Shown piece after piece: positions 3,497 through 62,063 of a DNA stretch of 64,000 nt. How positions within the stretch are numbered: position 1 is the first letter of the stretch; the number at the start of each line of letters is the position of its first letter. Made by a program: the position numbers and the translations under genes. A model generated the notes under the pieces. That model was not told where the DNA came from. It did not search any database and worked only from the letters and a program-made list of their open reading frames with translations. The stretch is from Escherichia phage JLBYU08, in sequence record OK272482.1; one strand, 5' to 3'.

Positions 3497-3529
3497 CGGT
3501 CAGATATCTATAAACTAGGAGAACTAGAT

Positions 3530-6645: not shown

Positions 6646-6651
6646 GGAATT

Positions 6652-7641: not shown

Positions 7642-7650
7642 TCAAGTATA

Positions 7651-7678
7651 GGGAGGCTTGCGCCTCCCTTTTCCTTTT
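7651..7678 (+). terminator. rho-independent terminator
   Basis: Hairpin GGGAGGC-TTGC-GCCTCCC followed by TTTTCCTTTT. Confidence 0.7.
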
Positions 7679-7687
7679 GGAGGCACT

Positions 7688-8927: not shown

Positions 8928-8954
8928 TAACGCATAGTATGATTGGAGAACGCA

Positions 8955-9146
8955 ATGACACTAAAGTTAACAATTCCAGACAGCTTTTCAGAAGACTTTA
9001 TCCCAGAAATGATGGGTAAGATGCGATCATTGCTTGATCAGATCGAGGAAGCTGTTTGGGAAGACGATGCTGTAGTGGCTAACGAGCTGGTAGATAAGTG
9101 TAAAAGTATTATTGATGCAGTTGAAGAATACCACGGAGGTTTTTGA
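8955..9146 (+). CDS. hypothetical acidic protein
   Basis: ATG 8955 in frame with track ORF 8943. Confidence 0.4.
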   Translation: MTLKLTIPDSFSEDFIPEMMGKMRSLLDQIEEAVWEDDAVVANELVDKCKSIIDAVEEYHGGF

Positions 9147-9760: not shown

Positions 9761-10347
9761 TCGGTATTGATGTAGATTTGACACTGGTAGATTCAGGAAC
9801 AGCATGGTGGGAGTGGTTGGAGCGTTTATATGGTCCAGCCAGTAAGACAGTCACTAAACCTTCTAATGGGTTAATGTATTACGATCTGTCAAAGTATTGG
9901 CCTGATCGCCCCAAAGAAAACATCATAGGGCCTTTTGATTTCTGGAGTGACCCGTTCCTCTACGACTTTCTTAAGCCTGAAGAGGGGGCTATTGAGGTTA
10001 TGAAAGATTTGGTGGCTCGTGGTCACAAGCTTGCATTTATCTCGGTATGCAAGAAAGGTCACCTTGCATCTAAATCAAGGTTCTTAAAGCGTTGGACTAG
10101 TGATTTTATGGATCTGGACGATCACACCCAGGGTCACGGCTTCTACGCCACGCATTTCAAGGGAAATGTGGCTGTAGATGTTATAATTGACGACAGGCAT
10201 GAATACCTGAACCAATTCGCTTCACGCCCTGAAGTTATTAAAATCCTAAAAGATACGCCTTATGAGCAATTTGAGGAGTTAAAGGTTAGTGTTGACTATA
10301 CCGCTAATAGCTGGTATAAAATAGGAAAGTTTTTAGAAGGTATTTGA
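9754..10347 (+). CDS. HAD-superfamily phosphatase, 5'(3')-deoxyribonucleotidase-like
   Basis: HAD motif I GIDVDLTLV at N-terminus, IIDDR motif near C-terminus. Confidence 0.6.
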   Translation: MLIGIDVDLTLVDSGTAWWEWLERLYGPASKTVTKPSNGLMYYDLSKYWPDRPKENIIGPFDFWSDPFLYDFLKPEEGAIEVMKDLVARGHKLAFISVCKKGHLASKSRFLKRWTSDFMDLDDHTQGHGFYATHFKGNVAVDVIIDDRHEYLNQFASRPEVIKILKDTPYEQFEELKVSVDYTANSWYKIGKFLEGI

Positions 10348-10348
10348 A

Positions 10349-10549
10349 ATGGGCAGATGTTCTAAAGGTGGCGATCCTGTAGTCAGATACGGTGACTGGC
10401 TAGAGGTGTATGATCTGGGAGGTAAGCTGGTGTATGCCTCCAGGATCACCCAAGACATGTGCTCCGATATGTTCAACAGATACCTTGCATTTAAGGCCAA
10501 CATAAACCCAGACGAAATTTCCAAAATTAAAACAAGGAGAGCTAAATAA
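10349..10549 (+). CDS. hypothetical protein
   Basis: 66-aa ORF, stop overlaps thyX start. Confidence 0.4.
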   Translation: MGRCSKGGDPVVRYGDWLEVYDLGGKLVYASRITQDMCSDMFNRYLAFKANINPDEISKIKTRRAK

Positions 10550-11532
10550 TGCTAAAACTGTGCACTGCAAAGATCATTGCTGACAGCATTTCCGAGAAAG
10601 GTAAGCGCATCACAACTTTTGAGCTAGAGTATCCTCGAATTATTCACTCAGAGCTTATGACGCACCGAGTGTTCAGCCGAAACGCCATGTCTTCCCGTGC
10701 AGTGCCTGTCGGAAAGATGCTACAACAGATTGTGGAGAATCCGGCAATGCCAGTTCGCTTCGGTGTAAATAAGCGAGGAATGGAAGATGGTGGGGAACAC
10801 GATCAAAAGATCCGTGTAGAGTACACTGATATGGAGCTAACTCCGGAAGAGTTTTGGAAAGAAGCTGCAAAAAACGCCGCTTGGCATGCAGAGAAGTTTG
10901 CCCTTGCTGGTTACCATAAGCAAGTATGTAACCGCTTAGTGGAGCCTTTTCAGCGCATGAAAACAGTTGTAACAAGCACCGAGTGGAATAATTTTTTCCA
11001 CCTCCGTTGCTGGCACGATGCGGATCCTACGATTCAGATGTTAGCTAATTGTATGTGGGAGGCTCTTGTGAATAGCACTCCTGAAATCCTTAAACCGGGT
11101 CAATGGCACACTCCATATGTAGAGCACGTTTATTTGGACGGGGAGTTTAACTACGCTGTACGTGACACAGAAGGAAAGCTCTGCATTCTCGATACTAAAG
11201 AAGCTCTGTCTATCAGTGCTAGTTGCTGTGCACAAGTATCTTATCGAAATATTGACAGCACGTTTGAAAAGGCAGACAGTGTGGCTAAAAAATTGATTGG
11301 TGGGGATCGTATTCATGCAAGCCCTTACGAGCACCAGGCAACACCTATGGATCACGATAACGCAATGGAACGTTTAAACTACTACCTGTCTTCATGTGAA
11401 ATCACACAAGACATCAGTACTTGGCAGGAAGGTGTAACCCATCAAGACCGTGATGGTAAATTCTGGTCTGCCAACTTTTGTGGGTGGGTTCAGCACAGAC
11501 AACTGCTTAATAACCACTTCGTGAAAGGTTAA
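10549..11532 (+). CDS. thyX: flavin-dependent thymidylate synthase
   Basis: ThyX signature RHRxxxxxxxS (ELMTHRVFSRNAMSSRA). Confidence 0.8.
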   Translation: MLKLCTAKIIADSISEKGKRITTFELEYPRIIHSELMTHRVFSRNAMSSRAVPVGKMLQQIVENPAMPVRFGVNKRGMEDGGEHDQKIRVEYTDMELTPEEFWKEAAKNAAWHAEKFALAGYHKQVCNRLVEPFQRMKTVVTSTEWNNFFHLRCWHDADPTIQMLANCMWEALVNSTPEILKPGQWHTPYVEHVYLDGEFNYAVRDTEGKLCILDTKEALSISASCCAQVSYRNIDSTFEKADSVAKKLIGGDRIHASPYEHQATPMDHDNAMERLNYYLSSCEITQDISTWQEGVTHQDRDGKFWSANFCGWVQHRQLLNNHFVKG

Positions 11533-39068: not shown

Positions 39069-39173
39069 TCACCCGATACCGTTGGAAGACAAGATCATAT
39101 TAGACATGGTTGCAATCAGGCCAATACCCAGGGCAATAACCAAGATCACTGCATCGATTAATTTCTGTTTCAT
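39069..39173 (-). CDS. 34-aa hydrophobic micro-protein (putative)
   Basis: MKQKLIDAVILVIALGIGLIATMSNMILSSNGIG; below ORF-track cutoff. Confidence 0.3.
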   Translation of the reverse strand: MKQKLIDAVILVIALGIGLIATMSNMILSSNGIG

Positions 39174-39250
39174 AGTGTTTATTCTCTTCTGTTAGTAACC
39201 TTATTCATGGGGCCGCTACCACAGCCCCAGGGTAAGGCGGCTATGTGCTT

Positions 39251-39496
39251 TTAGTGTTTCATTCCAACCATCGCGGCACGGATCGCCGTAGTGCTGTACT
39301 TGAAGCCGTCCGGGGTCTTATCTTGTCCGGTTAGCTCCAGAAAAAGCATCATATCCCGCGCCGCATCATTACGATCAGCATTAGCGTTAATAAATCCTTG
39401 GGCCAACCGGTACAATGACTCATCGTTATTAATCCAAAGGCTTACATTCCAATGAGTTTTGTTTTTGTAACCGTTATAACCTTTATTGCTTTTCAT
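39251..39496 (-). CDS. hypothetical protein
   Basis: 81-aa ORF. Confidence 0.45.
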   Translation of the reverse strand: MKSNKGYNGYKNKTHWNVSLWINNDESLYRLAQGFINANADRNDAARDMMLFLELTGQDKTPDGFKYSTTAIRAAMVGMKH

Positions 39497-39587
39497 GGTG
39501 TTTACCTCTTCTTTGTTCCGGGTGGCGGATCATTCCACCACCTTATGTATTATGCTTTGTTAGATGGTTGTTTGTTGTCAAACTATT

Positions 39588-39767
39588 TTAACGATAATCA
39601 TCGTACGCTTTATTAACCTGGCGAATATAACATTCAAAAGCTAGATCAATAGATTCATATTCACGGATATACTCACCATAGGAAACCACATACATTTCTA
39701 TAACTTCCTCATATGCGAGGAGAATAGAATCTAAGCCTACGATCTCGGTCTTTGCAATAATAGCCAT
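39588..39767 (-). CDS. hypothetical protein (59 aa)
   Basis: ORF just below track cutoff, preceded by promoter-like TTGACA and hairpin. Confidence 0.35.
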   Translation of the reverse strand: MAIIAKTEIVGLDSILLAYEEVIEMYVVSYGEYIREYESIDLAFECYIRQVNKAYDDYR

Positions 39768-39843
39768 GATTTTTTATCCTCTTTGTGGTTGGTGGGGCTT
39801 GTTGCCCCCTTTGATTTATATACTACAGTTTTATATGGTCATG

Positions 39844-40077
39844 TCAACTATTTTCAAAAAATTTTTCTGCTGTAATATTTTTCCCGGTAGGGTTCGCTAC
39901 TTTCAAAATTTTATCATGCACTGGACGCCCAAAAGAATAAGCGCCGTACACAGTGCACCAATAATCGCCGTCAGGCTGTACTATTACAGCCGCATAGGGT
40001 ACGCCTTTTTCGTTTTTGCTGACAAAATAGATCACGTTGCCATTAATAGCCTCGGCGCGTTTAATTTGTTCCATCAT
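39844..40077 (-). CDS. hypothetical protein
   Basis: 77-aa ORF. Confidence 0.45.
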   Translation of the reverse strand: MMEQIKRAEAINGNVIYFVSKNEKGVPYAAVIVQPDGDYWCTVYGAYSFGRPVHDKILKVANPTGKNITAEKFFENS

Positions 40078-40132
40078 GATGATTTGCCTCTCTTTATTTT
40101 CATAATTGGGGGCCTTTTCGGCCCCGCCAGGT

Positions 40133-40417
40133 TTATTTATTGATAGCGTGCAGCGGGAAAGGTACGCCAGGTTGATAGATAACTTTTACAACCTCATCAG
40201 AGCAAAAGAAATTACAAAATTCACCCTGATAAGCCTCATCCTCTTTTAATTCTTCATCAACATACTGGAAAAAGTAGTCAATGCTTGGATAATCCTGACC
40301 GGGATTATATTCAACCATGGTTAATAACAATTCTTGATCATTCCGTATGATATGCATACCAGCTTTTAAGTATTTGGCTTCCATTTCTACTACATCGCCA
40401 ACGGTAACAATAGCCAT
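40133..40417 (-). CDS. hypothetical acidic protein
   Basis: 94-aa ORF. Confidence 0.45.
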   Translation of the reverse strand: MAIVTVGDVVEMEAKYLKAGMHIIRNDQELLLTMVEYNPGQDYPSIDYFFQYVDEELKEDEAYQGEFCNFFCSDEVVKVIYQPGVPFPLHAINK

Positions 40418-40547
40418 GGTTTTAACTCCTATCTATCCGGTTAATGATTGGAGGCCTCACCGCCCCCGACACCCTTTATTATCCATATTGTAGGACTTGA
40501 TGCAAGTACTTCTTTAAAAATTTTTTAAGCGCCTTGGGGGCCGCTGT

Positions 40548-40587
40548 AACGCCAAAATAATAAAGGCTATGCAACCGCATAGCCTTT
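40548..40587 (-). terminator. rho-independent terminator
   Basis: Hairpin AAAGGCTATGC-AACC-GCATAGCCTTT; minus strand followed by ATTATTTTGG. Confidence 0.55.
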
Positions 40588-40622
40588 ATGTGATTATATC
40601 GCTGCAGGCCCTGCCAGGGACC

Positions 40623-40973
40623 TTATTTTGCATTCTTTCCTATATTGCCGCTACGGTACCAGCGTTTACGGTGAAAATGGTAATAATCACCATCGGCATT
40701 GAACATCAGATGATTTTCAATAACCAGCTTACGAAGGTGGGCCGGATCTTGTTCCATTCTTGCCAGATTCTGGCGGCTGTTACGTAAGCGGATAAATTCT
40801 ATATTCAGGCCGTTGATTGCAGCATGGATGTCAAAGTAACCACCTTTGAGACGTTCACGCATGGCGTTAAGCTCAACACAATATACAGATTTCTCACAAA
40901 TCAAGGTATTAGCCAGGGCGCGGACCTGGGCAAGGGGGTTAAGCTCATTAAGGTAATATAGTTTTACTTTCAT
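40623..40973 (-). CDS. hypothetical protein
   Basis: 116-aa ORF. Confidence 0.45.
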   Translation of the reverse strand: MKVKLYYLNELNPLAQVRALANTLICEKSVYCVELNAMRERLKGGYFDIHAAINGLNIEFIRLRNSRQNLARMEQDPAHLRKLVIENHLMFNADGDYYHFHRKRWYRSGNIGKNAK

Positions 40974-40990
40974 AAAATCACCTGCTGAAA

Positions 40991-41296
40991 TTAGTTTGAG
41001 AAAACATCGTTCACAATAGCGATCACAATGCCGCCCACCTTGTCACGGTCAACAATGCACAAATCACCATAGATCATGTGGTAGTCTGGATGATCTTTGA
41101 CGGAATAGTCGATAAGTGTTTTCTTGTCATCCAGCTTACTAACTTCCATTCTCATAACGATATGAGAATCATCAAAGGCATTATTCCGAAAAGTCATAAC
41201 CTGACCGCCAGGGCACCCGGTGATTTCCACCTCCACGCCGTCTACGATCTGACCATCAAAGAAATAAAGATTATTAGCCTGGATAAACATGATCAT
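40991..41296 (-). CDS. hypothetical protein
   Basis: RBS AAAAAGGAG before ATG 41296. Confidence 0.45.
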   Translation of the reverse strand: MIMFIQANNLYFFDGQIVDGVEVEITGCPGGQVMTFRNNAFDDSHIVMRMEVSKLDDKKTLIDYSVKDHPDYHMIYGDLCIVDRDKVGGIVIAIVNDVFSN

Positions 41297-41334
41297 TACT
41301 CCTTTTTGCACTGATTATTTTAACAAGGTTTAAA

Positions 41335-41378
41335 TTTACTTTATTGATGGCCCTGGAGTCAAGGCCATCTAAAAATAA
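41335..41378. repeat. 44-bp intergenic palindromic element, copy 1 of 3
   Basis: TTTACTTTATTGATGGCCCTGGAGTCAAGGCCATCTAAAAATAA. Confidence 0.7.
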
Positions 41379-41381
41379 ATT

Positions 41382-41582
41382 TTACAGGCCTACAATCTCT
41401 TTAATTCGTTTTACTGCTGCCTCAGCGCCTTGAGGGTAAAAATTATGGTAACCAATCACGCGAGTGATACTAATCGCCGTTTGATGATCTTCATAATCAC
41501 CTTTAAAGATTTCTTGACCGTCAATCAGCACGGCAATTTTTTCTTCTTTTTTGAAGTTAATAACGCGGATATTGTTGCTCAT
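41382..41582 (-). CDS. hypothetical protein
   Basis: 66-aa ORF. Confidence 0.4.
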   Translation of the reverse strand: MSNNIRVINFKKEEKIAVLIDGQEIFKGDYEDHQTAISITRVIGYHNFYPQGAEAAVKRIKEIVGL

Positions 41583-42063
41583 TTTGTTTCTCCTTTTGGA
41601 ACTTTGTCTATGCGGTGGGGAGTGTCTCCCCGTTGATTGTTATTATCCATATTCTGGATCGGATTGCAACACTCAGGGAGAAAAAAATTTGAAAAGTTAG
41701 GCCCCCATGATCGGGGGGCCGTTCTTAGTTACTTACAGCGATAAAGTACATCCCTACGCCTAGCAATATTTCAAGGGCGATAATCTCAAGCCATACCATA
41801 ACGCGGCGCACCTTATCGGTGCATGGCTTATCCTTGGTTGTCATCGTCTCCCCCTTTCCTTCTGGTAGTAGTGACGCGATCTACAATGGCCCCCAGGAGT
41901 CCTATCCCGACACACACCACAAGAAAAATTATCTCCGCTGTTGTTCGATCCATTGTTATAAAATTCCTCAAGATCAGGCCTGAAAATAAAGCGTTCGTTA
42001 TTGAATCCATCCCGCCAGGCGGCTGGCTTCAAATCTTCACTAAAGGGATTAATTAACGTGGCA

Positions 42064-42435
42064 TTATTTAAACGGCTGGTCCACATATTTTCTATTCCTC
42101 TCAAATAGGCGATCCGCCTCAGTTAAACAAATCTCATGGGCGTGATCTCTGGTTTTAGCTTCATCGAAAACCTGTTGTGCAAGGCTGCAACGTAGGGAGA
42201 CTGGAAGATCACTATAATAGGCGTTGACAAACGTTTGAGCGTCGTACAGGTCTGAAAATACTTTACCCTTTCTATTATTCCCCTTGTCAACAATTGCAAG
42301 GATAACCAATACAATAGTTGCAACCACCCCCAGGAAAATAGATATAATAAACCATAAAAAGGCGGATCTTCCCATCTTGCCAGCGATCCAGGCGTTAAAC
42401 AAGGCAACCAATACAGCCAAAATAATAAATTCCAT
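42064..42435 (-). CDS. membrane protein
   Basis: Two TM segments; RBS AAGAGG before ATG 42435. Confidence 0.45.
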   Translation of the reverse strand: MEFIILAVLVALFNAWIAGKMGRSAFLWFIISIFLGVVATIVLVILAIVDKGNNRKGKVFSDLYDAQTFVNAYYSDLPVSLRCSLAQQVFDEAKTRDHAHEICLTEADRLFERNRKYVDQPFK

Positions 42436-42499
42436 TCTATGTACCTCTTTTACAGTTCTGATTAACAATAAGGCGGCAAATATGCCGCCTGCTACCTGA

Positions 42500-42880
42500 T
42501 TAAAAATTATCGCCGTAAATCTTTCCGCTTTCTACCCATACCACCACGCGAGGCATACTATCCCACACGTCTTGTTTTAGATTGAGCGCGTGCAATTCTT
42601 CGGTGGTGCTCATACCGGGCACGGGCTGATTGTATACTGCAAAACGACCGCCTGCATAATCATAGGCCAGGGTTAAATCACACTGGATCATCTTTTTGAT
42701 CATGGTATTAAGCATGGCGTTAGCCGCATATTGATCACGTTTTAAAGGCAACTCTTTGATTAGTTTGCGATAGTTTTCGATATGGTCGCACACTGTTTCA
42801 CGAGGAAGATCTTTCATATCTTCACGGAATGTAACCAGGTTAAACATAACGGTGTCAATAGCCTTGGTAGTGTTTTTCAT
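42500..42880 (-). CDS. hypothetical protein
   Basis: 126-aa ORF. Confidence 0.45.
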   Translation of the reverse strand: MKNTTKAIDTVMFNLVTFREDMKDLPRETVCDHIENYRKLIKELPLKRDQYAANAMLNTMIKKMIQCDLTLAYDYAGGRFAVYNQPVPGMSTTEELHALNLKQDVWDSMPRVVVWVESGKIYGDNF

Positions 42881-42970
42881 GATGTTATCCTCTTTGTTTT
42901 GTGTTGGGGCAAACGTCTTGCCCCCTTGAGTTTTAATATAGCAGGTTTTTAGGTTATTGCAACACTTTAT

Positions 42971-43594
42971 TTATGAAAAAGTCATCTCACCATATTCATC
43001 GACATCAAACCGCCAATCATTGGCCTCGATAAGGCCGATCAGGTTTTCTGCGGTGAACTGTTCTAGATAGGCCTCCTCCAGGTCTACGTAAACCTTGCGG
43101 GATAGCTCCCGTACCGTCTCGGTGATCAGTTCTTCCAGGTCTTCCACTTTGTTTTCTTGTTTGGCGGTCAGATCTAGCCAAGTGGTATCAATGTACCCGC
43201 TTACAGTGTTTTCATGGCTGTAATGGCTGTACTTGTCGCGTTCAACACTGGCTGATAACTCGCCATCGTGCATTGTGCCGAACAAGTGACGAATTGATCG
43301 GAACTTGGTCAGGGCCTTTACTTTACGCAAAAATTTTTCTAAATCCACGTTTTCAGCACTGATTGACGCGCCGTCACCCTGGCACCAAAAGCCTGACCAA
43401 TGTACTTCGGTATCTTCAAGGCCATACTCTGGAAAAACATATTCTTTATAGTATTCAATTACACTTTCTGCAAAAAAGTTATCCCCGCTGTGTTCTTCTC
43501 TTTCGCGGACCATTTCAACGGCTTTTTCTTTTTGTTCGTCGGTCAGCACGTCGAAAGATAAATTGTAACCTGCGGTAATGTTAACGGTGGTCAT
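42971..43594 (-). CDS. hypothetical acidic protein
   Basis: 207-aa ORF; promoter and hairpin upstream. Confidence 0.5.
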   Translation of the reverse strand: MTTVNITAGYNLSFDVLTDEQKEKAVEMVREREEHSGDNFFAESVIEYYKEYVFPEYGLEDTEVHWSGFWCQGDGASISAENVDLEKFLRKVKALTKFRSIRHLFGTMHDGELSASVERDKYSHYSHENTVSGYIDTTWLDLTAKQENKVEDLEELITETVRELSRKVYVDLEEAYLEQFTAENLIGLIEANDWRFDVDEYGEMTFS

Positions 43595-43651
43595 GATATT
43601 TTCTCCTATTTTCTTTGTTAGTGGCGGGAAGTTTTCCCGCCTGTGTGTTTA

Positions 43652-43679
43652 AGTATACTTATTGAGGCTTACTTGTCAA
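43652..43679 (-). promoter_or_regulatory. sigma70-like promoter (TTGACA-N16-TATACT)
   Basis: Minus-strand hexamers followed by hairpin GGCGGGAAAACTTCCCGCC in the leader. Confidence 0.45.
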
Positions 43680-43929
43680 CACTATTTTTTAAATTATTGT
43701 GGCGCAAAATGTTTAAAATCTCCTCAACGTCATCAACACGGCGGCAATTTTTAAACGCTACCAATTGCCCCATGATTTTAATCACTGGGCGGCCTTGCCA
43801 GTGCCCTTGAATAAAGCGCGCCTTAACCTTATCGGTGGAACTATCCCGCCACCAAACGGCTTTATTATTGCAGTAGTAAAAATTATTTAGGACAACATCG
43901 ACTTTATCAAAATTTTTCAATTTACGCAT
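43669..43929 (-). CDS. hypothetical protein
   Basis: 86-aa ORF. Confidence 0.4.
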   Translation of the reverse strand: MRKLKNFDKVDVVLNNFYYCNNKAVWWRDSSTDKVKARFIQGHWQGRPVIKIMGQLVAFKNCRRVDDVEEILNILRHNNLKNSVDK

Positions 43930-44112
43930 GGCGTTTACCCCCCTTACTTCTCGCTTTGATGTGATTAGTATAGCTAACCTGTTGACGATGTCAATGATAT
44001 TTTTAACGCCATGAAACGGCCCTGGGCGATGTTTTCAGGTTAAAGGGGGCGATTGCATAGGTGGGGGCCTTTTTGGCGCTTACAGGGCCAACCAGGGGCG
44101 CTATTCGTAGGA

Positions 44113-44144
44113 TAGAAATAAAAAGCCCCGCACAATGGCGGGGC
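44113..44144 (-). terminator. rho-independent terminator
   Basis: Hairpin GCCCCG-CACAATGG-CGGGGC; minus strand followed by TTTTTATTT. Confidence 0.7.
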
Positions 44145-44152
44145 GTTGGTTG

Positions 44153-44374
44153 TTATTTGTCTTTATGGCGGTATCGTTCTGCCTGTCGTTCACGTTCCAA
44201 AAGTAGGCCGGGCAATTTACGATCATAATGATTACGCCAGATCTTCCCAAACCTTTTTGGCTTATTCAGTTTATTGTTACGCTGGCGGCGTTCTGGCAGC
44301 TCTTCGGAATCATGAGGGCGCTTTACAATTTTCTCGAAATTAATTTTCATATATTCCCCCCTTGCTAACTTCAA
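44153..44374 (-). CDS. small basic protein
   Basis: 73 aa, Arg/Lys-rich. Confidence 0.4.
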   Translation of the reverse strand: MKLARGEYMKINFEKIVKRPHDSEELPERRQRNNKLNKPKRFGKIWRNHYDRKLPGLLLERERQAERYRHKDK

Positions 44375-44693
44375 TATTGGCCTGAATAGCCCGGATACGG
44401 CGCTTTATAACTTCCTGATCTGTGTGGTCGTATCCCCAAAAGTCTACAATTTTTGCGCCCCCCGCCTCCAGGCGGTATAGTGTTTCCTGCATTTTGTAAG
44501 CCGGGATCGGTCGCGGTGTTACTTGGTCACCTTCTTTATTTTTATACTTTATAATATAATCTTCGTTATCGTTGAATGCCCAAAATGGATATTCTGCAAG
44601 GGCGGTACTTCCTCTTTCCTTTTTATCCTGGATCTTATTTACAATTAAAGCCGTAGCAATAGCGCCAATAATAAAACTTGCCCCGCTGATCAT
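44340..44693 (-). CDS. membrane-anchored protein
   Basis: N-terminal TM ISGASFIIGAIATALIV. Confidence 0.45.
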   Translation of the reverse strand: MISGASFIIGAIATALIVNKIQDKKERGSTALAEYPFWAFNDNEDYIIKYKNKEGDQVTPRPIPAYKMQETLYRLEAGGAKIVDFWGYDHTDQEVIKRRIRAIQANIEVSKGGIYEN

Positions 44694-44767
44694 GTACTTT
44701 CTCCTTTCATGGTGTTAATAAATTATCTTTATAGATGGCCCTGCAACCAGGACCACCGAAAAAATAA

Positions 44768-45013
44768 CTATTTCACAATGCCTACAAAACAGATCCCGCC
44801 TTCACCTATATAAGCAATATCGGTCACTTTATAACTTGTCAAGATCTGCTTATTTAGTTCATTAATAAAATCGGTCATTGCGTTGGTGTAGTTGTCTTCC
44901 GTGTCTAAGGCATAATCCCAGGTGTACACCTTTTTACGTCCGAAGCCTTTTACCATGATACGGGCGCTTTTGGTGTTGGTAGGGGCATAATATTTGGTGA
45001 TTAGTGCTGCCAT
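44768..45013 (-). CDS. hypothetical protein
   Basis: 81-aa ORF. Confidence 0.45.
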   Translation of the reverse strand: MAALITKYYAPTNTKSARIMVKGFGRKKVYTWDYALDTEDNYTNAMTDFINELNKQILTSYKVTDIAYIGEGGICFVGIVK

Positions 45014-45046
45014 GGTTTTAACTCCTATGCATTAGTTCAGTGTTAA

Positions 45047-45090
45047 CAGTATAAAGTTTACTTTATTGATGGCCCTGGTGTCAAGGCCAT
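45047..45090. repeat. 44-bp intergenic palindromic element, copy 2 of 3
   Basis: TTTACTTTATTGATGGCCCTGGTGTCAAGGCCATCTAAAAATAA. Confidence 0.7.
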
Positions 45091-45102
45091 CTAAAAATAA
45101 GC

Positions 45103-45444
45103 TTACTCGTTTTCTTCCAGCTCCGCAAGCTCTTCTTTTGCTTCTTCTAACTCTGTCTGTAATTCCTGGTATTCTTCATCGTCCTCAATATCCAGGCTGT
45201 CGATGTAGTCGCTAAATCCGCAGCGGTAAGCGATAGGATCTAGCTCCTTGAGGATACGCGACGGAAGAAAAGAAATGTTTCCGATCATAATTTCGCCGTA
45301 GATCTCGTCTAACCATTCATCATAGTTTTCGTCGTACTTGTCCTCGTCGATTTCAAAGTTATCGATCTTATTCTCAAGGTCTGCGATCTGTTTTTTCAGT
45401 TCAGCGATCTGCATAGCTTTTTCTGAGGCGGTCATAGTAGTCAT
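45103..45444 (-). CDS. highly acidic coiled-coil protein
   Basis: 113 aa, strongly acidic (DIEDDEEYQELQTELEEAKEELAELEENE). Confidence 0.5.
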   Translation of the reverse strand: MTTMTASEKAMQIAELKKQIADLENKIDNFEIDEDKYDENYDEWLDEIYGEIMIGNISFLPSRILKELDPIAYRCGFSDYIDSLDIEDDEEYQELQTELEEAKEELAELEENE

Positions 45445-45495
45445 GGTGTTTTTCTCCTTTTGTGTGTTCTGGGAAGTTTTCCCGTTTATGTGCTT

Positions 45496-45523
45496 ATTAT
45501 ATCGATTTAAGTTAGCTTGTCAA
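45496..45523 (-). promoter_or_regulatory. sigma70-like promoter (TTGACA-N16-TATAAT)
   Basis: Minus-strand consensus hexamers; hairpin GGGAAGTTTTCCC in leader. Confidence 0.5.
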
Positions 45524-45643
45524 TTAAAAGTTTAAGAAAAATTTTGCGACACCGTTGGCGCTACCCATCAACATTTGCGCCAGGATGTACCCAATGATGC
45601 AAACGATGATGGTTACCTTTGTGTGCTGGCGTGTAGTGCTCAT
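45524..45643 (-). CDS. 39-aa hydrophobic micro-protein (putative)
   Basis: MSTTRQHTKVTIIVCIIGYILAQMLMGSANGVAKFFLNF. Confidence 0.3.
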   Translation of the reverse strand: MSTTRQHTKVTIIVCIIGYILAQMLMGSANGVAKFFLNF

Positions 45644-45677
45644 CTTTAAGCCTCCTTTTCCGCTCAACTGTGGTTAG

Positions 45678-45721
45678 TTTACTTTATTGATGGCCCTGGT
45701 GTCAAGGCCATCTAAAAATAA
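45678..45721. repeat. 44-bp intergenic palindromic element, copy 3 of 3
   Basis: Identical to copy 2. Confidence 0.7.
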
Positions 45722-45723
45722 AC

Positions 45724-46119
45724 TCAATAAGTTTTTAGTACTTTCCCGTCCAATCTGTCAAGCTGGATCTCGATAGCTGCAGAAAACCTATTGTAAACCA
45801 CATCGCCCAGGGAGTCCAGCCAATCTATGACGTTATATACCTGCTCTTTATTCTTGCAAGTCCGGATCCGTTTCATTACGTAAGACGGATCAATATTAGC
45901 GCTCTCGTTGTTGTGGTCCTGCGCCTGGCCTGCTGCGCTAGTTATAGATTTTACAACCACCTGAAAGGGCTTTAAGGTGCCTTTTGCGTTCATCTCACGC
46001 GCTTTTGCGGCGCGGTTGTTATATGTTACACAACGGCGGCAAATGTTGACCAAATGCATATCAATAATTTTTTCATCGTTTGCCAGTTCGTTCATGATGC
46101 GGCGTACGTTCTTATTCAT
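45724..46119 (-). CDS. hypothetical protein
   Basis: 131-aa ORF. Confidence 0.45.
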   Translation of the reverse strand: MNKNVRRIMNELANDEKIIDMHLVNICRRCVTYNNRAAKAREMNAKGTLKPFQVVVKSITSAAGQAQDHNNESANIDPSYVMKRIRTCKNKEQVYNVIDWLDSLGDVVYNRFSAAIEIQLDRLDGKVLKTY

Positions 46120-46201
46120 GATCTTTTTCCTTTGTGCTGGCGGGAAACATTCCAGCCTTTTGTGTCTAGTTTACTTAAATTTTGCAGCGTGTCAATGATT
46201 T

Positions 46202-46600
46202 TTATTCGTGGGCGCATGTTACAATGTGTTTTTTATAGCCCAGGTGGTCAGCAAGTGCCGACAAAAACTCTTCTTCGTAGATCCAGCCGTCGGCAGTGAT
46301 CCCCATAGCATTTAATGCGCTCTCAAGTGCTGCGTTAGCTTTATCGTAACCGTGACCGCTCGCCTTGCCGCCAGTATAACCGTACTTATTGTTCTTGTTG
46401 TCGTGAATCCAAAACACGCAGTAGTGAGTGTTCCCGCTGGCGGCGGCATAATACCGGATCTCAGCTACTTCGTGCAAATTATTGTCATCGTCCAGGCCCA
46501 CCAGATTATAAGCCTTGTAAAATCCACGATCACGGCGGCAGTTCTTGACATCAGAAAAAGAAAAGTCTGCATTATCAAAATTAAAGGTAGTGGTTTTCAT
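46202..46600 (-). CDS. hypothetical protein
   Basis: 132-aa ORF. Confidence 0.45.
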   Translation of the reverse strand: MKTTTFNFDNADFSFSDVKNCRRDRGFYKAYNLVGLDDDNNLHEVAEIRYYAAASGNTHYCVFWIHDNKNNKYGYTGGKASGHGYDKANAALESALNAMGITADGWIYEEEFLSALADHLGYKKHIVTCAHE

Positions 46601-46664
46601 GATTTTATCCTCTTAGTGTCTTTTGTGCTTTTAGTGTATTTGGTGTCGGACTGTATGTCAATAC

Positions 46665-46862
46665 TTATTTTTTATTAAACCAGTGGTTGATCTGACCTTT
46701 TGTCAGGGCGCAACGATTAAGCTGTTGCAGGGTATAGCTATGACCGCGACGAAATTTATAAAGGCCTTGCCCGTTGTTGATGGTTACATCCACCCGGCAA
46801 ATCACTTGATTGGTGACCACCTGGCGAGTGTTGCGACGTACTTTGATCCCGTATGCGTTCAT
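46665..46862 (-). CDS. small basic protein (possible DNA-binding)
   Basis: ATG 46862 with RBS AAAGAGGA; first gene after the 47-48 kb gap. Confidence 0.4.
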   Translation of the reverse strand: MNAYGIKVRRNTRQVVTNQVICRVDVTINNGQGLYKFRRGHSYTLQQLNRCALTKGQINHWFNKK

Positions 46863-46912
46863 AAATTTATCCTCTTTACTGGTTAGTGCGGTGTTGTTCA
46901 CCTTGTAGGGTA

Positions 46913-46940
46913 ATAATACCATGATTAACCTTGTTGTCAA
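46913..46940 (-). promoter_or_regulatory. sigma70-like promoter (TTGACA-N16-TATTAT)
   Basis: Minus-strand consensus hexamers. Confidence 0.5.
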
Positions 46941-47257
46941 CGACTATTTTAAATTATTTTTATGATAGAATCCACCTGCCGTCCCCGCCAGGTTAACCAC
47001 CATTTTTCGTACTCTTCTTTATGTTCCAACGCTCCCGCCATAGCCTTTTCAACCAGGGCGATAGCCTCAGAGTCATTAATAGCTACATTTTCCAGGGGGG
47101 ATCATATCATTTTTGTACCTCCTCTTCAATTGTTACCTATCCTGTAGCATAGGCCCACCAGGTTTACAAGCCTTCATTCTCCCCTACCTGGTCAGTTAGG
47201 TCCTGCCAGGCTGGCCCCGCCAGGTGGCACAATATACCTATCGAAAGGACGGCAGGC

Positions 47258-47475
47258 ACCGGTGACGGGGGAGACAACCACCGGGGATGGGCGCTGCATA
47301 AAATGAGAACGGTTATCATTATCATTTAAAAATTTATGCAAAAAAAAAAATCCTTGCTTTCTTTGTCCTGTGTGATACTATAATAACAAGCCGGGGCAAC
47401 AGGGGCCGGGAGACAATCACCGGGCCTGCCCGTTATTCTGCAAACGAGAATGATTATCATTCAAAATTCTAAATG
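47258..47475. repeat. two about 75-bp direct repeats sharing core GGGAGACAAYCACCGGG and GAGAAYGRTTATCATT
   Basis: Copies at about 47258-47335 and 47399-47475; inverted core copy at 37838-37872. Confidence 0.55.
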
Positions 47476-47578
47476 AGAACTCCTCGCATTTAATAAATTT
47501 AATTAGCACGCTAATTACCCTCCGTAACAATTTACTATAAAATAGTATCCACTAAAATATTCCCATATAGAAATTTTA

Positions 47579-47761
47579 AAAATCCATTTCTGAAAACGAA
47601 AAATCGATTTCGTCCCCAAAAATTTCAGGTTGAGAGCCGGAACGATTTCCAGAAAATCCGATTCAGAAAACGAAAAACAGATCGAGTACTGAGAAATTTA
47701 TCGAGAAAAATTTTCAGAAAATCCAAGCCCTGAAATGAAAAGTAGATCGAGTACCTGGAAA
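47579..47761. repeat. degenerate tandem repeats (CAGAAAAYCC ... AGATCGAGTAC units)
   Basis: TTCAGAAAA(C/T) four times and AGATCGAGTAC twice at about 65-bp spacing. Confidence 0.5.
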
Positions 47762-48066
47762 GCTGCACCGCAACTTCAAGATAGCGGTTAGATTGTTACC
47801 ATAGAAGGTCAAGGGTAAGTGGAGGAAGTTCTAGTAGAGAGAGGTTAGCATGTGTGGGAAATCTATAATGGTGGCCTGGAATATGGTGCAAACGATAGGA
47901 TGAGTTATTCAGCTTGTCGCGCCTACTCTGAAAAATCCATTTTAGTTTTCGATCCATTTTCTGATTTTCTAAGAATTTTAAAATATCCAGCCCGGTGAAA
48001 TATCAAAAGGAGGAAATCCATTTTAGAAATCCCCCTTATACTTGATATGCCAGAAATTTTCAAGTA

Positions 48067-48396
48067 TCAGTTGTCTTTGTTTTTAGGTTTGTACATGCGC
48101 AGAGGTATGGTCTTTGTAACATTCCATTTCCTCAACCCTTCCCAGCTCCAGTTGTGGGCGTGGTATCCGGTTATGCATGCACTACTGGAGTGATCGTAAG
48201 CATAAGAGAACGCTAAGCGCACCAGGTGGGGCCAGTCCTTCCATGGTTGTGGACCGTAAGCTTTTCTCCAACACCGACACAAACTAAATGTCTCAAGGAT
48301 AGGAAGGATAACAAACCCATACACTGTCACCAAAATAGCCAGTGCAATGATTGTCAGGAATACATACCCTGCAGTTGAAATGATGATCTCTGTCAT
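48067..48396 (-). CDS. membrane protein
   Basis: N-terminal TM. Confidence 0.45.
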   Translation of the reverse strand: MTEIIISTAGYVFLTIIALAILVTVYGFVILPILETFSLCRCWRKAYGPQPWKDWPHLVRLAFSYAYDHSSSACITGYHAHNWSWEGLRKWNVTKTIPLRMYKPKNKDN

Positions 48397-48656
48397 TTGT
48401 CCTCCCCTTTCTTACGAATATAGATGTGAGATCCTGCCTGTATATAAATTTCTCGACCATCTTCTGCAAAGATATGAAATACACGATCACCTTCGTACTC
48501 GATACGAGATATTTTCATAATGGTCTTTCCACCTGGGATACGGATCTCGTCCCCCACAGCGATGTTCCATGCAGATTTAAGCTTAAACATCTGCACCTTC
48601 CTTTGGGAGCTCGAACTCTGGCATAGCCATATACGCCACAACAGGGTTGTAATCAA
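48393..48656 (-). CDS. hypothetical protein
   Basis: 87-aa ORF. Confidence 0.4.
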   Translation of the reverse strand: MITTLLWRIWLCQSSSSQRKVQMFKLKSAWNIAVGDEIRIPGGKTIMKISRIEYEGDRVFHIFAEDGREIYIQAGSHIYIRKKGEDK

Positions 48657-48828
48657 AGTAGAAATGACCGTTAATTATCCCAGTTTTGTGAGCATAGTCA
48701 CCAGATCCTGCAAGAACAACCTCGCAAACTCCGAAATCAACCTTGCCATTCTCATCTGCCATGGCTACAATATACTTTCCTAGAGGCATGTTTTTAACGC
48801 CGTCTACAAATGTCCACCCTTTGTTCAT
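48583..48828 (-). CDS. hypothetical protein
   Basis: 81-aa ORF, overlaps neighbour; start uncertain. Confidence 0.35.
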   Translation of the reverse strand: MNKGWTFVDGVKNMPLGKYIVAMADENGKVDFGVCEVVLAGSGDYAHKTGIINGHFYFDYNPVVAYMAMPEFELPKEGADV

Positions 48829-48849
48829 AACTTTATCTCCTGGACTTTC

Positions 48850-49182
48850 TTAAGGTAACCAGTAAACAATTTCGCCTTTCAGTTCCATGTCGTTACCGAC
48901 ATAGATTTTCCAGCCATCCATTTTAGCCACTGCAGGAGTGAAGTCCGAAGAACCACTAACCTCTTTCCAAGTCCCGTAGTCAGGTTGCCAGATATAGAAT
49001 CCACCTTCCTTGTCCCATGCTCCATATACCACATCGAGCAGGTTGCCCATTGCAACAATAGTAGGCCGTGGGAATAATACACCTACAGATGCACCACAAT
49101 TTCGGGTAGATTTTAAATTACAATCCCAAAAGATGTCTGCCAGTGTGGCGGCAATAGCTTTACGTCTTTCCAATGTTACCAT
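48850..49182 (-). CDS. hypothetical protein
   Basis: 110-aa ORF. Confidence 0.45.
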   Translation of the reverse strand: MVTLERRKAIAATLADIFWDCNLKSTRNCGASVGVLFPRPTIVAMGNLLDVVYGAWDKEGGFYIWQPDYGTWKEVSGSSDFTPAVAKMDGWKIYVGNDMELKGEIVYWLP

Positions 49183-49192
49183 GGCACGATAC

Positions 49193-49384
49193 TCACTTGT
49201 TGTTAAGAAGTTCTAAAACTTTCTGTTTTACTTTGTCAAGGTCTGTGGATTCAAAAACTGTACGATATCCCCAACTTTGCCCATAGGAGTGACTGCAATC
49301 CCCGTAGCACCATTGCTCAATTTGATAGTATTCAAGGAAGGGGTGCTGTCTAACTATGATACCATCCCGGTTAAAAATTACCAT
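49193..49384 (-). CDS. hypothetical protein
   Basis: 63-aa ORF. Confidence 0.4.
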   Translation of the reverse strand: MVIFNRDGIIVRQHPFLEYYQIEQWCYGDCSHSYGQSWGYRTVFESTDLDKVKQKVLELLNNK

Positions 49385-49447
49385 AATACATCACTCTCTG
49401 TTAGTTTATGCATATATTATACACTGCAGTTTTCAGATGTCAATCTT

Positions 49448-49699
49448 TTACAGGTTACTCCAGTATAATCGGCATTTACATTTTGGGCAATGAGGTTCTT
49501 TTATGTAATAACCATCAGTCTTTGGAACACTTTTTGGTGCAGTTTTAAGATTGTACCTGGTAAAACATCGGAAGCAGGTTACCTCTCCCACCTGTTGATC
49601 GTTGATCCACTCACCAGAGTAAAGCTCTTTCTTGTTTCTCATAATTCTCTCCCAAATCCTCTGCAATCTTATACCAAAATCTCCAGCCAGAAAGCACAC
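49448..49699 (-). CDS. zinc-ribbon protein
   Basis: CFRC ... CPKCKC Cys pairs. Confidence 0.4.
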   Translation of the reverse strand: MCFLAGDFGIRLQRIWERIMRNKKELYSGEWINDQQVGEVTCFRCFTRYNLKTAPKSVPKTDGYYIKEPHCPKCKCRLYWSNL

Positions 49700-49893
49700 G
49701 GGAACACCTTGAGGATTGAATCTTTACTTGGCTCGGAAGTTCTTTTTCCGTATGGTAGGTAGAAATACCCCCCTGCAGATTCGAATATAGCTCCTTCGGT
49801 TGTATCTACCACAGCAAGAATTAAGATTTTAGTCTCCACAGTGCTCTCCTCTCTTAGTTGTTGTGGAAACTATATCACCTCAGAAGATGGTCG

Positions 49894-50352
49894 TCAACAC
49901 TTTTTGTACTCTACTACAACCACATCAATATCTGTGGTTGCAAGATTAATTACATCTTCTACATGTTCCCACTTTAGACCGCCAATACCGCATCCAATTT
50001 TAGGAATGTAGAACGGCAATGACACACCTTTGAATACCTCGTTGACTCGCTCAAAACCTTTCATTATTGAGAAGTATTCAGCATTGGGCCCTGGGTAGAA
50101 CTGGGTATACAGGTTGATTCCATATACGACCCTGTTCTTGGCAAAATGCTCCCAACAAGAAAACATACCCAGCTTGTCCAGATTACCATAGGCAGTCTCT
50201 TTGTCGGCTGCCAGTGCTTGAGGGAACTCACGGGCAATATCTTTCGCTATGCCTGCACCCATTGTATGAAAGCAGTTACAACCGTGGATCAGGTGACCAG
50301 CACCGCTCTTAAAAAGGGAGATTAAATCTCCCGCTACAGTATCAATAATCAC
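49894..50352 (-). CDS. macro-domain protein (ADP-ribose binding/hydrolase-like)
   Basis: IHGCNCFHTMGAGIAKDI and IPKIGCGIGGL blocks fit macro-domain glycine-rich motifs. Confidence 0.55.
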   Translation of the reverse strand: MIIDTVAGDLISLFKSGAGHLIHGCNCFHTMGAGIAKDIAREFPQALAADKETAYGNLDKLGMFSCWEHFAKNRVVYGINLYTQFYPGPNAEYFSIMKGFERVNEVFKGVSLPFYIPKIGCGIGGLKWEHVEDVINLATTDIDVVVVEYKKC

Positions 50353-50767
50353 GGTATGTTAGCTCCTCTTCCGCAATTTCAAAAAACTCATCCCAACCTT
50401 GTGGCATATTTGAGTTGCCGAAGTGGCTTTCATAGTAAAGGTTCTCACCACTTGGGAGATAGAAATCTGTTACCTCGTAGAATCCACAATCGTCGCACTC
50501 GCCTTCTTCAAACTTGGCCTCAACCTTAATACCTAGGAAGGTGAAAAGTTTATGGATATCTTCAGTTTCGAACTCCCAGAAGATATTGTTTTCCGCATCG
50601 GTGTAGAACTGGATCAGCAGACCATTATCCAGTTTACCAAAATATTCTGTGAAGTAACTACCTTCCCAGAAATCTTTATGACAAATAATATCCATGCGCT
50701 TGCCCATGATAAAGGTGTGGGCGTTTTGGGCATCGTCACGAATCAGTTTTGGCATTTCATAGATCAT
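50342..50767 (-). CDS. hypothetical acidic protein
   Basis: 141-aa ORF. Confidence 0.45.
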   Translation of the reverse strand: MIYEMPKLIRDDAQNAHTFIMGKRMDIICHKDFWEGSYFTEYFGKLDNGLLIQFYTDAENNIFWEFETEDIHKLFTFLGIKVEAKFEEGECDDCGFYEVTDFYLPSGENLYYESHFGNSNMPQGWDEFFEIAEEELTYRDY

Positions 50768-50835
50768 CTTAGTTCTCCGGGTTCAACAGGTGGGGGTGCT
50801 ACAGGAAGATCATAAAACATAGCTATCACAGTCTC

Positions 50836-51033
50836 TTACACAGGAATTGCTTCAAACAGGCCGTTATCTATACCGTCCTTCAGATAGAGATTATATTCTA
50901 TGTCGGTATCTGTATAAAGGGCAGCATCCAGCATTCTATCTGTGAGTCCATCCATTGGGTGGAGAAACCACCACCCACGCCAGTCAAAGTAACAGCCTGG
51001 TGCATCTTCTCTTACACGGATTCGATAAATCAT
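50836..51033 (-). CDS. hypothetical protein
   Basis: 65-aa ORF. Confidence 0.4.
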   Translation of the reverse strand: MIYRIRVREDAPGCYFDWRGWWFLHPMDGLTDRMLDAALYTDTDIEYNLYLKDGIDNGLFEAIPV

Positions 51034-51546: not shown

Positions 51547-51608
51547 TTTTTAGATCTCCTTATACAAAAATGCCCCACCCTTTCGGGCAGGGCTATGTTA
51601 ACTAAATG

Positions 51609-61258: not shown

Positions 61259-62042
61259 TAATTCTGCTCCTTACTGCAGGCTCGTTTGCTAAGAATACGG
61301 CTTTTGCCCAGCCACGTGGTGTGAGGCTTCGGATCATCTTCGTTCTTGCACTCTTTCCACCCAGCTTGGCGTGTTGCATGGAATACCCGCTAACCGCGTC
61401 AACTATTTGCTGGACAGGTTTTGTGGCCGGGATTATAAATCCATTACCTATCCAGCCGCAAGTTATTTTTGGATAGGCATCACGTGGAGCTATAAATTCA
61501 GGAAACCAGGGGTTTACATCATCCTCCGGTAAATACCCGCCATAGTCAGAAGGGTGAAAACGGTAATCAGGTTTGCGCCACAGTGTGGACATAACACCCA
61601 CAGGATTCTCTACATGCCACGGGCAATCGTAAATCTCTCCCAACTCTTCTGCAACCCGAGCATCCTTTACAGCATTAATCTGGATCAGCGGGTCCTTAGC
61701 CAGCTTCTTCTTAAAGTGTGCAGCACCTGACACCGCTAAGTGGGTGCACGGAGGAAATGCAAGAACAAAGTCCGGAGCTGGGTACATGCAGAAAGTTTCC
61801 TGAGGGAACCATGGATCAATCCAATAATCTACATAGTGAATATTTGGATGATCGGTGATCACCTCTGCATAACTGCCGTGGTCAGCACCTTCTGCGTTAA
61901 AGCACAGGCACAGATATCCAGCTTTTGCCCAGTCAATGACTGCACCGCCAGATCCGTCAAATAGACTCCACACAACACCTTTGTGGTAGTGTTCTTTATA
62001 GATAAATTTCAATTTGCTGTCTCCTAATGCAAAAAGCCCCAC
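61248..62042 (-). CDS. DNA cytosine-C5 methyltransferase-like protein
   Basis: Motif I LFDGSGG, PC motif FPPCTHLAVSG, ENP motif VENPVG; short for a C5 MTase so assignment is tentative. Confidence 0.45.
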   Translation of the reverse strand: MGLFALGDSKLKFIYKEHYHKGVVWSLFDGSGGAVIDWAKAGYLCLCFNAEGADHGSYAEVITDHPNIHYVDYWIDPWFPQETFCMYPAPDFVLAFPPCTHLAVSGAAHFKKKLAKDPLIQINAVKDARVAEELGEIYDCPWHVENPVGVMSTLWRKPDYRFHPSDYGGYLPEDDVNPWFPEFIAPRDAYPKITCGWIGNGFIIPATKPVQQIVDAVSGYSMQHAKLGGKSARTKMIRSLTPRGWAKAVFLANEPAVRSRINGK

Positions 62043-62063
62043 CCTTTCGGGCAGGGCCTAGTG

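Follow-up and report, generated by a model that had tools for sequence, protein, structure and literature searches.

The 64,000-nucleotide stretch of Escherichia phage JLBYU08 analysed here (sequence record OK272482.1; the whole stretch is called the window throughout) contains a block of small minus-strand open reading frames (ORFs), and in the gaps between them a palindromic repeat recurs. Eight of the nine ORFs flanking this element are of no known function. A first-pass annotation had noticed three 44-bp copies, each lying between a minus-strand stop codon and the next start, and had read them as a combined promoter and RNA-structure module, possibly a processing site or a terminator/antiterminator. 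The 44-mer, TTTACTTTATTGATGGCCCTGG(A/T)GTCAAGGCCATCTAAAAATAA, indeed has three exact plus-strand matches (41335-41378, 45057-45100 and 45678-45721), all between stop and start as described and 2-3 nt away from the stop, and in 100 dinucleotide-preserving shuffles no match appeared even at up to three mismatches. The first and third positions had been given exactly, while the second copy, real in itself, starts at 45057 and not, as reported, at 45047, an error of 10. Repeat finding extended the full unit to 49 nt (41333-41381, 45055-45103 and 45676-45724) and added a diverged fourth copy of 69% identity at 44721-44769; this copy was missing from the earlier account, as were the lower helix, the strand asymmetry and the role in recombination, which is the best-demonstrated property of the element. 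The copies and their parts are listed below.

41333-41381, minus strand: copy 1, full unit, between the ORF66 stop (41382-41384) and ORF101 (ATG at 41296 or 41290)
41346-41369, minus strand: upper stem-loop of copy 1
45055-45103, minus strand: copy 2, full unit; the ORF113 stop (45103-45105) is the base of the lower helix
45094-45103 paired with 45055-45064, minus strand: lower helix of copy 2
45068-45091, minus strand: upper stem-loop of copy 2
45676-45724, minus strand: copy 3, full unit, directly 3' of the ORF131 stop (45724-45726) and upstream of ORF39 (ATG at 45643)
45689-45712, minus strand: upper stem-loop of copy 3
44721-44769, minus strand: copy 4, diverged and apparently hairpin-only, overlapping the ORF81 stop (44768-44770), upstream of ORF117
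44734-44757, minus strand: upper stem-loop of copy 4
45079-45084 (copy 2, TTGACA), 45700-45705 (copy 3) and 41357-41362 (copy 1, TTGACT), minus strand: -35 hexamers from the promoter scan
45055-45060 (copy 2, TAAACT), 45676-45681 (copy 3) and 41333-41338 (copy 1, TAAATT), minus strand: -10 hexamers from the promoter scan

The four copies span no more than 4.4 kb, copy 1 lying 3.7 kb off in a separate transcription unit. At every one of them the unit begins 0-3 nt from the upstream stop codon, which forms the base of the lower helix, and the next Shine-Dalgarno (SD) sequence and ATG follow 25-45 nt beyond the copy. A covariance-model search of the whole 64-kb window, run with filters off, found no further diverged members.

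Read on the coding strand, the unit runs stop - UUUAUUUU - (UA) - GAUGGCCUUG - ACAC - CAGGGCCAUC - (AAU) - AAAGUAAAYU and is predicted to fold into two helices separated by an internal loop of 2 x 3-4 nt. The upper stem is GC-rich and has 10 bp, one of them a U·G pair, closed by a 4-nt loop; the lower helix consists of about 10 A/U pairs contributed by the flanks, begins within the upstream stop codon and has the -10 hexamer as its end. The perfect 7-bp palindrome GATGGCC/GGCCATC pointed out previously is present, and the -35 hexamer, which had been placed in the hairpin loop, is found there only with its AC(A/T), the TTG being paired within the 10-bp stem. Fold energies on the sense strand lie between -22 and -24 kcal/mol and z between -5 and -6 (-23.6 kcal/mol and z -6.3 for copy 1, -22.3 kcal/mol and z -5.2 for copy 2), and the fold of the intergenic region with copy 3 reaches -30.0 kcal/mol. 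Plus-strand RNA of the element folds worse than minus-strand RNA: copy 4 gives -24.6 kcal/mol on the minus strand, and its plus strand, at -10.4 kcal/mol and z -1, does not outdo shuffled sequence.

The fold was then compared over 40 distinct sense-strand copies of the four sites, taken from the window, from 11 phages in GenBank and from two contigs in IMG/VR (alignment A1, without copy 4 of phage Alma, which has two 1-nt indels in its upper stem and still folds). In the two-helix structure 97.4% of cells are paired, as compared to 35-58% when the partners were slid by 1-3 columns, and RNAalifold, which was not given the structure, predicts the same two helices. Four lower-helix pairs have changed on both sides (G-C to A-U, U-A to C-G, U-A to A-U and A-U to U-A), the variation of five upper-helix pairs is confined to G·U wobble, and a lower-helix U·G pair is present in 39 of the 40 sequences. 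Among the substitution events in the upper stem, six keep the pairing only as sense-strand G·U and two break a pair; the variants with broken pairs still fold. The covariance model scores copies 1 to 4 at 82.6, 82.4, 81.3 and 71.2 bits on the minus strand and the reverse complements at 30-43 bits (40.1 for copy 2). These comparisons show, at the level of sequence, that the two-helix fold of the sense strand is under selection. Another intercistronic two-helix hairpin (39171-39253, minus strand, -25.3 kcal/mol) follows a stop codon immediately, lacks both a U-tract and a recognisable promoter, and suggests that non-terminating intercistronic hairpins may be a general feature of this early region.

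The same nucleotides have the appearance of a promoter. The promoter scan reports TTGACA-18-TAAACT in copies 2 and 3 (10/12 match) and TTGACT-18-TAAATT in copy 1 (9/12), with transcription starts predicted near 45048, 45669 and 41326 for copies 2, 3 and 1, respectively, and in all three a T-rich UP-like tract, TTTATTTTTA, lies upstream of the -35. A 10/12 match is by itself weak evidence, since the region has 49 promoter-like matches where 29 are expected. Among 30 distinct type-A copies, nevertheless, TTGAC is unchanged in 29, the unpaired loop A being fixed in all 30 and the C in 29, whereas both of the loop positions that come after them are variable, with A/T/G at the first and C/T at the second (some nine events; assuming equal mutability, P ~0.02). 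Copy 4 has CTGGTT where copies 2 and 3 have TTGACA, and at its loop 3 of the 4 positions vary; having lost the -35 and kept the hairpin, it can be regarded as a natural hairpin-only version of the element. A natural promoter-only version may be recognised in the phi92-like phages alia and Antha, which carry, at the site homologous to the element copy of phage KKE7M, a hairpin-free promoter TTGCAA-16-TAAACT, followed by a 5' untranslated region (5'UTR) hairpin, a CA-rich leader, SD and ATG as in other early promoters. The end of its spacer together with its -10 (AAAATAAAGTAAACT) is the block that also makes up the 3' half of the 44-mer, and the -10 block AATAAAGTAAAYT is common to the element, to the alia/Antha promoter and to the window promoter at 46195 (46168-46195), which has the same hexamers and the same AAG-TAAACT context. 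We hold with fair confidence that copies 1-3 fire as internal sigma70 promoters.

Most gaps in the block have a consensus-type promoter, then a GC-rich 5'UTR hairpin without U-tract, a CA-rich leader and an SD. Copies 1, 2 and 3 each come after the first ORF downstream of such a promoter (at 41669, 45523 and 46195, respectively), and copy 4 comes after the second ORF of the 45523 unit. The units that contain copies are bounded by predicted promoters and terminators, the copies being intercistronic; the boundaries and associated features are as follows.

45496-45523, minus strand: consensus promoter TTGACA-16-TATAAT driving ORF113 (promoter scan; annotated as P192 in the rV5 GenBank record)
45470-45484, minus strand: 5'UTR hairpin after this promoter
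44125-44144, minus strand: intrinsic terminator, a GC stem then TTTTTATTTC, ending the unit with copies 2 and 4 (terminator scan; annotated in EdH4 and Alma)
40560-40589: terminator ending the unit with copy 1 (terminator scan)

The comparison of related genomes further shows that the copies, as judged from the positions of the junctions, are recombination substrates for the deletion and exchange of the cassettes between them. Two segments are concerned.

45101-45721, minus strand: 621-bp unit that ECP26, ime and one IMG/VR contig lack, with ORF113, the promoter at 45496-45523, ORF39 and a single copy of the repeat
45051-45524, minus strand: 474-bp cassette shared with KKE7M at 93.5% nucleotide identity, with the strong promoter, its 5'UTR hairpin, ORF113 and copy 2

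Phages ECP26 and ime have two copies, not three. The 621 bp that separate copies 2 and 3 are missing from them, and the junction of the deletion falls within the repeat. In the alignment across the deletion, window positions 39482-45114 correspond to 412-6064 of locus L005 and positions 45676-51000 to 6004-11340 (L006 likewise), so that the alignments overlap only within a single repeat. The remaining single copies, that of the IMG/VR contig included, are hybrids with the left flank of copy 3 and the right flank of copy 2. In 5 of 9 lineages, paralogous copies of one genome have rare loop variants (ACAC, ACTT) in common (permutation p = 0.005), and in phiWec193 the same T-to-C change is found in copies 2 and 3; both observations point to gene conversion between the copies.

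Exchange, as the comparison of genomes shows, has reached another subfamily. KKE7M belongs to the genus Justusliebigvirus of the Stephanstirmvirinae (phi92-like) and has one copy of the element, within the 474-bp block, which is absent from more than 30 KKE7M relatives; in the relatives alia and Antha a different cassette, of 296 bp, occupies its position. The joints of the KKE7M cassette fall in the spacer of a shared upstream promoter and in AATAAAGTAAA, the -10 block, and the event is best described, from these joints, as a promoter-to-promoter cassette replacement by short homology and not as site-specific recombination at the hairpin. An attC-like site-specific recombination site was considered and rejected, as the joints lie in ordinary promoter homology and not at a fixed point of the hairpin. 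In a search limited to the nine flanking ORFs, none resembles a recombinase.

A separate case of exchange concerns ORF63 (49176-49388, minus strand; locus L057, 1497-1709), whose identity to RB49 ORF258c is 90.5% at the protein and 83% at the DNA level, with similar counterparts in other Krischvirus phages. The DNA homology with RB49 is confined to the ORF, indicating a recent exchange of an ORFan between rV5-like and RB49-like phages with no regulatory DNA shared; a link of the element to RB49, a phage in which PeSLs (promoter-early stem-loops) are known, was rejected on this ground.

The region of the window shares 98.8% identity with Escherichia phage EdH4, and over 100 Vequintavirus (rV5-like) genomes match it at 90-99%. 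A 59-nt query against GenBank found the element in 120 phage records, usually at three places per genome, and over about 120 genomes the three sites and copy 4 are kept at 90-100% identity while their flanks diverge. None of the EdH4, Alma and rV5 records has an annotation at the element sites, although promoters and terminators nearby are annotated there, and the element has remained without annotation in the roughly 120 deposited genomes. The only plasmid match, PLSDB CP057073.1, is entered as a "non-mobilizable plasmid" of 137,565 bp, its E. coli host having come from cattle faeces; it carries three element copies and is evidently the genome of an rV5-like phage, wrongly classed as a plasmid. 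In IMG/VR, the neighbouring 81-aa ORF used as an anchor led to two loci only, and a degenerate-pattern scan returned 40 stretches, among which a covariance-model screen confined the true elements to the two rV5-like contigs found with the anchor; the remaining matches were dismissed as chance or as members of an unrelated family. The latter, GATTTCCTC-GATGGCCTTG-GNRA-CAGGGCCATC-CGGAAAATC, is a two-helix hairpin located immediately before SD and ATG in viral or prophage contigs (loci L019 4890-4967, L024 2832-2909, L026, L034, L038, L041, L050, L056 and L022), has no Rfam match, and in L024 lies near a CsrA-like ORF; its upper stem agrees with that of the rV5 element, a likeness imposed by the search pattern. 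Seventeen "Campylobacter phage" records (e.g., MG065635.1, "Campylobacter phage C12"; host C. jejuni) are 95-100% identical to rV5-like coliphages over window positions 40000-47000, and other records so named match phi92-like phages; they are probably mislabelled or derive from contaminating coliphages.

Some further features of the surroundings are recorded here in their own right. The sole flanking ORF with a recognised family, of 65 aa (44153-44350, minus strand), has a Pfam match (E = 2.6e-11) to PF08200, "Bacteriophage 1.1 protein" (T7 gene 1.1). KKE7M (locus L004, 1190-9780) carries, within 12 kb, eight or more copies of a module that combines a TTGACA... promoter, the 5'UTR hairpin GGCGGGAAATGGTTTCCCGCC, a leader and an SD, which appears to be a dense PeSL-like family in a phi92-like phage; a related pair is present in the window at 43614-43651 and 45459-45496 (repeat family D10). 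A 335-bp non-coding gap (47458-47798) contains three direct repeats of about 57 nt (47566, 47640 and 47705) and long AT-rich hairpins, has an analogue in KKE7M with three 79-nt repeats (L004, 10794-11014), and could be an origin or a regulatory region. Two near-identical GC-rich hairpins, AAAA(T/A)GCCCCACCCTTTCGGGCAGGGC, are found 10.5 kb apart at 51567-51593 and 62031-62057 (family D16), the first of which looks like a canonical terminator, with a T-run next on the minus strand.

With moderate confidence we read each copy as a PeSL-like intercistronic cassette with dual coding, a DNA promoter and an RNA hairpin, set in a hyperplastic early ORFan region of an rV5-like phage. At the DNA level, the T-rich UP-like tract, TTGACW, the 18-bp spacer and TAAAYT of copies 1-3 would constitute an internal sigma70-type promoter, from which transcription may start about 25-45 nt before the next ORF. 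At the RNA level, transcripts coming from the strong upstream promoters would fold the same 49 nt into an interrupted hairpin of about 20 bp with the stop codon at its base, and this hairpin may determine the processing or the stability of the mRNA, as an RNase III-type substrate or as a barrier to 3' exonucleases, uncoupling the fate of the promoter-proximal cistron from that of the cistrons downstream. At the level of the repeat, the identical copies of 44-49 bp are substrates of homologous recombination, and gene conversion, deletion of the intervening cassette and exchange across subfamilies are its outcomes, as comparative genomics shows. The combined promoter and RNA-structure module proposed initially is therefore favoured by the comparative evidence, with the firing of the promoter and the function of the RNA being inferred. 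The coding would be compact, the same 49 nt serving as UP-like tract, -35, spacer and -10 in the DNA and as two helices in the RNA, with copy 4 (hairpin only) and alia/Antha (promoter only) as natural controls; an overlap of DNA and RNA codes is not surprising in principle.

Several observations weigh against this interpretation, and part of them would suit a hairpin that acts in intercistronic processing, stability or translational insulation by itself, TTGACW and TAAAYT being incidental or too weak. The 18-bp spacer and the 4/6 match of the -10 make the predicted promoter weaker than its neighbours with 16-bp spacers and consensus hexamers; the rV5 genome paper, in which 33 promoters and 20 terminators are given and repeats go unmentioned, does not have the element in its stringent promoter list; copy 2 of ECML-10 reads TAAACG and has lost the key T of the -10; and promoter-like matches are, as said, common in the region. 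The -10 and the UP-like tract, moreover, sit inside the lower helix, so that their conservation is not cleanly assignable to either function, and copy 4, with both helices and the position after the stop but without the -35, implies that a hairpin function can stand alone. Nonetheless, TTGAC is kept where its A and C are unpaired and their neighbours vary, the loop of copy 4 drifts, the 3' half is homologous to the -10 region of the clean alia/Antha promoter at the same site, and the hexamers are those of the promoter at 46195, on account of which we find a hairpin without promoter rather unlikely. As for the RNA, the covariation derives from few independent events (about 3-4 compensatory, 6 wobble) in closely related sequences, the count of pairs with a change on both sides is not above that of shuffles (173/500), and the RNase III or stability role is argued from the shape alone, an Rfam search of 40500-46500 at a permissive threshold having returned no match at the elements. 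In the literature searched, we found no transcript mapping for rV5-like phages, neither of initiation nor of RNA ends at the element. A terminator or attenuator coupled to the promoter, in which the hairpin would cut the read-through from upstream and the overlapping promoter would restart transcription, is in agreement with the strength of the 10-bp GC-rich stem and with the geometry of promoter-coupled terminators, the hairpin DNA supplying the -35 and the -10 coming directly after; the stem-loop of the RB49 211/210 PeSL also lowered lacZ about as far as the rrnB T1 terminator (PMC2839356; PMC4122927). An intrinsic terminator was defined, however, as a GC-rich hairpin with a U-tract (at least 5 U in 8 nt) immediately after it, and what comes after the stem is AAUAAAGU in the sense direction and UAAAAAUA in the antisense direction, with no U-tract either way, so that the element is by its sequence not a canonical terminator, and the reading as an intrinsic (Rho-independent) terminator was rejected. 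The element is not among the 25 sites of the terminator scan, which does find the U-tract terminators at 44125-44144 and 40560-40589 at the ends of the same units, nor was it called by the three annotation teams of EdH4, Alma and rV5. Its flanks are U-rich on the 5' side and A-rich on the 3' side on either strand, the inverse of a bidirectional terminator, from which the hairpin appears not to terminate, and termination has no need of a selected 10-bp A/U lower helix. The terminator/antiterminator suggested in the first-pass annotation is thus not supported, the processing site suggested there is a reasonable candidate, and a terminator or attenuator coupled to the promoter is quite unlikely. 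Since selection keeps a 20-bp helix and yet orients its A/U flanks so as to avoid a U-tract, we tentatively take the hairpin in read-through mRNA for a processing or stability determinant, an assignment that falls somewhat short of probable, a role as attenuator being doubtful.

Other explanations dispense with the RNA or with any function. The perfect 7-bp inverted repeat over the -35, GATGGCC-N10-GGCCATC, identical in three copies, might be a duplex-DNA operator where a dimeric phage or host regulator switches the internal promoters, and palindromes that encode stem-loops can reportedly double as transcription-factor sites. The six substitution events that pair only as sense-strand G·U, though, break the dyad symmetry of the duplex, in copy 4 one arm alone has changed, at 3 of its 10 positions, the covariation reaches into the A/U flanks, past a typical operator, and none of the nine flanking ORFs encodes a recognisable DNA-binding protein; the operator, rejected on the asymmetry of the substitutions, is very improbable. 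That the copies are functionless duplication scars of cassette insertion, alike through recent common origin, could be argued from copies 2 and 3, which flank a unit present in some genomes and absent from others as if an insertion had duplicated its target, yet we consider it hardly credible, given that the three sites and copy 4 persist among diverging flanks, that the changes obey pairing rules and that copy 1 is 3.7 kb distant in a different transcription unit. An N4-type hairpin promoter was set aside for want of any basis. There is, finally, a slim chance that the extended hairpin is a specific recognition element beyond a generic structure, either an RNA switch or a single-stranded DNA fold that targets recombination. 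In the former, RNase III or a phage factor might read the hairpin while a ribosome terminating at the basal stop codon gates its folding, which would tie the translation of the first cistron to processing and to the use of the embedded promoter; in the latter, ORFan cassettes running from promoter to hairpin might be actively mobile between phage subfamilies, by analogy with attC-mobilised integron cassettes.

The PeSL-like cassette that we favour shares traits with several known systems. Host intercistronic stabilising hairpins, such as the REP elements in malE-malF and the sites of "selective RNA processing and stabilisation", likewise have no U-tract, follow a promoter-proximal cistron and can set differential stability within an operon, as the element might do. 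They are, however, host elements with no embedded promoter, whereas the element had no match in 5,426 complete E. coli genomes, and a host REP-like repeat is ruled out by its absence from E. coli chromosomes. The early RNase III hairpins of T7 (e.g., R1.1) are intercistronic, have about 20 bp in an upper and a lower stem with a small asymmetric internal loop, and do not overlap promoters; they are reportedly the subject of the study of Dunn and Studier in 1983 and of work of the Nicholson laboratory. The element, with about two turns of interrupted double-stranded RNA, an internal loop and an intercistronic position, resembles them in shape, and its hairpin would by analogy stay on the 3' end of the upstream message; it differs in having no sequence homology with them, in overlapping a promoter and in matching no Rfam family.

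In promoter-coupled terminators the T-tract constitutes the spacer and RNA 3' ends fall 8-11 bp ahead of the start site (Fletcher et al., bioRxiv 2026, doi 10.64898/2026.08.19.745784). Like them, the element provides the -35 from the DNA of its stem-loop and has its -10 after the 3' flank, with adjacent units coupled; unlike theirs, its spacer is A-rich and devoid of a T-tract, so that intrinsic termination is not expected at the element and a place among the promoter-coupled terminators was rejected.

The closest resemblance is with the PeSLs of the T4-like phages RB49, phi1, PST and nt-1 (Arbiol et al., 2010, PMC2839356; Comeau et al., 2014, PMC4122927), which consist of an upstream stop in an AT-rich tract, a sigma70-like promoter, a stem-loop, and an SD with a start codon. 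Their stem-loop takes five positions, one of them overlapping the -35, G-T pairs have been noted in it, and PeSLs cluster in ORFan-rich hyperplastic regions, where recombination between copies generates indels and mini-circles (PMC2839356; PMC4122927). The element differs from them in showing no sequence similarity to the RB49 PeSLs and in its lack of a U-tract and its two helices with comparative support on the sense strand, PeSL stem-loops being presented as terminators; the literature, furthermore, reports PeSLs and their shuffling in T4-like phages only, while the element belongs to the Vequintavirinae and reaches the Stephanstirmvirinae. If the likeness is true, the PeSL mechanism would extend to rV5-like and phi92-like phages, which are common in E. 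coli biocontrol and therapy cocktails, and would help to explain the turnover of their early ORFan repertoire, cross-subfamily transfer included. The element, known from its sequence, has all the PeSL features that a sequence can reveal: a beginning at a stop codon in an AT-rich tract and a following SD and start codon in all four copies, a putative sigma70-like -35 and -10 with AT-rich upstream DNA in copies 1-3 and not in copy 4, a stable stem-loop overlapping the -35, four copies clustered among ORFans within 4.4 kb, and indels or replacements with crossovers in the elements, as in the 621-bp deletion and the KKE7M replacement.

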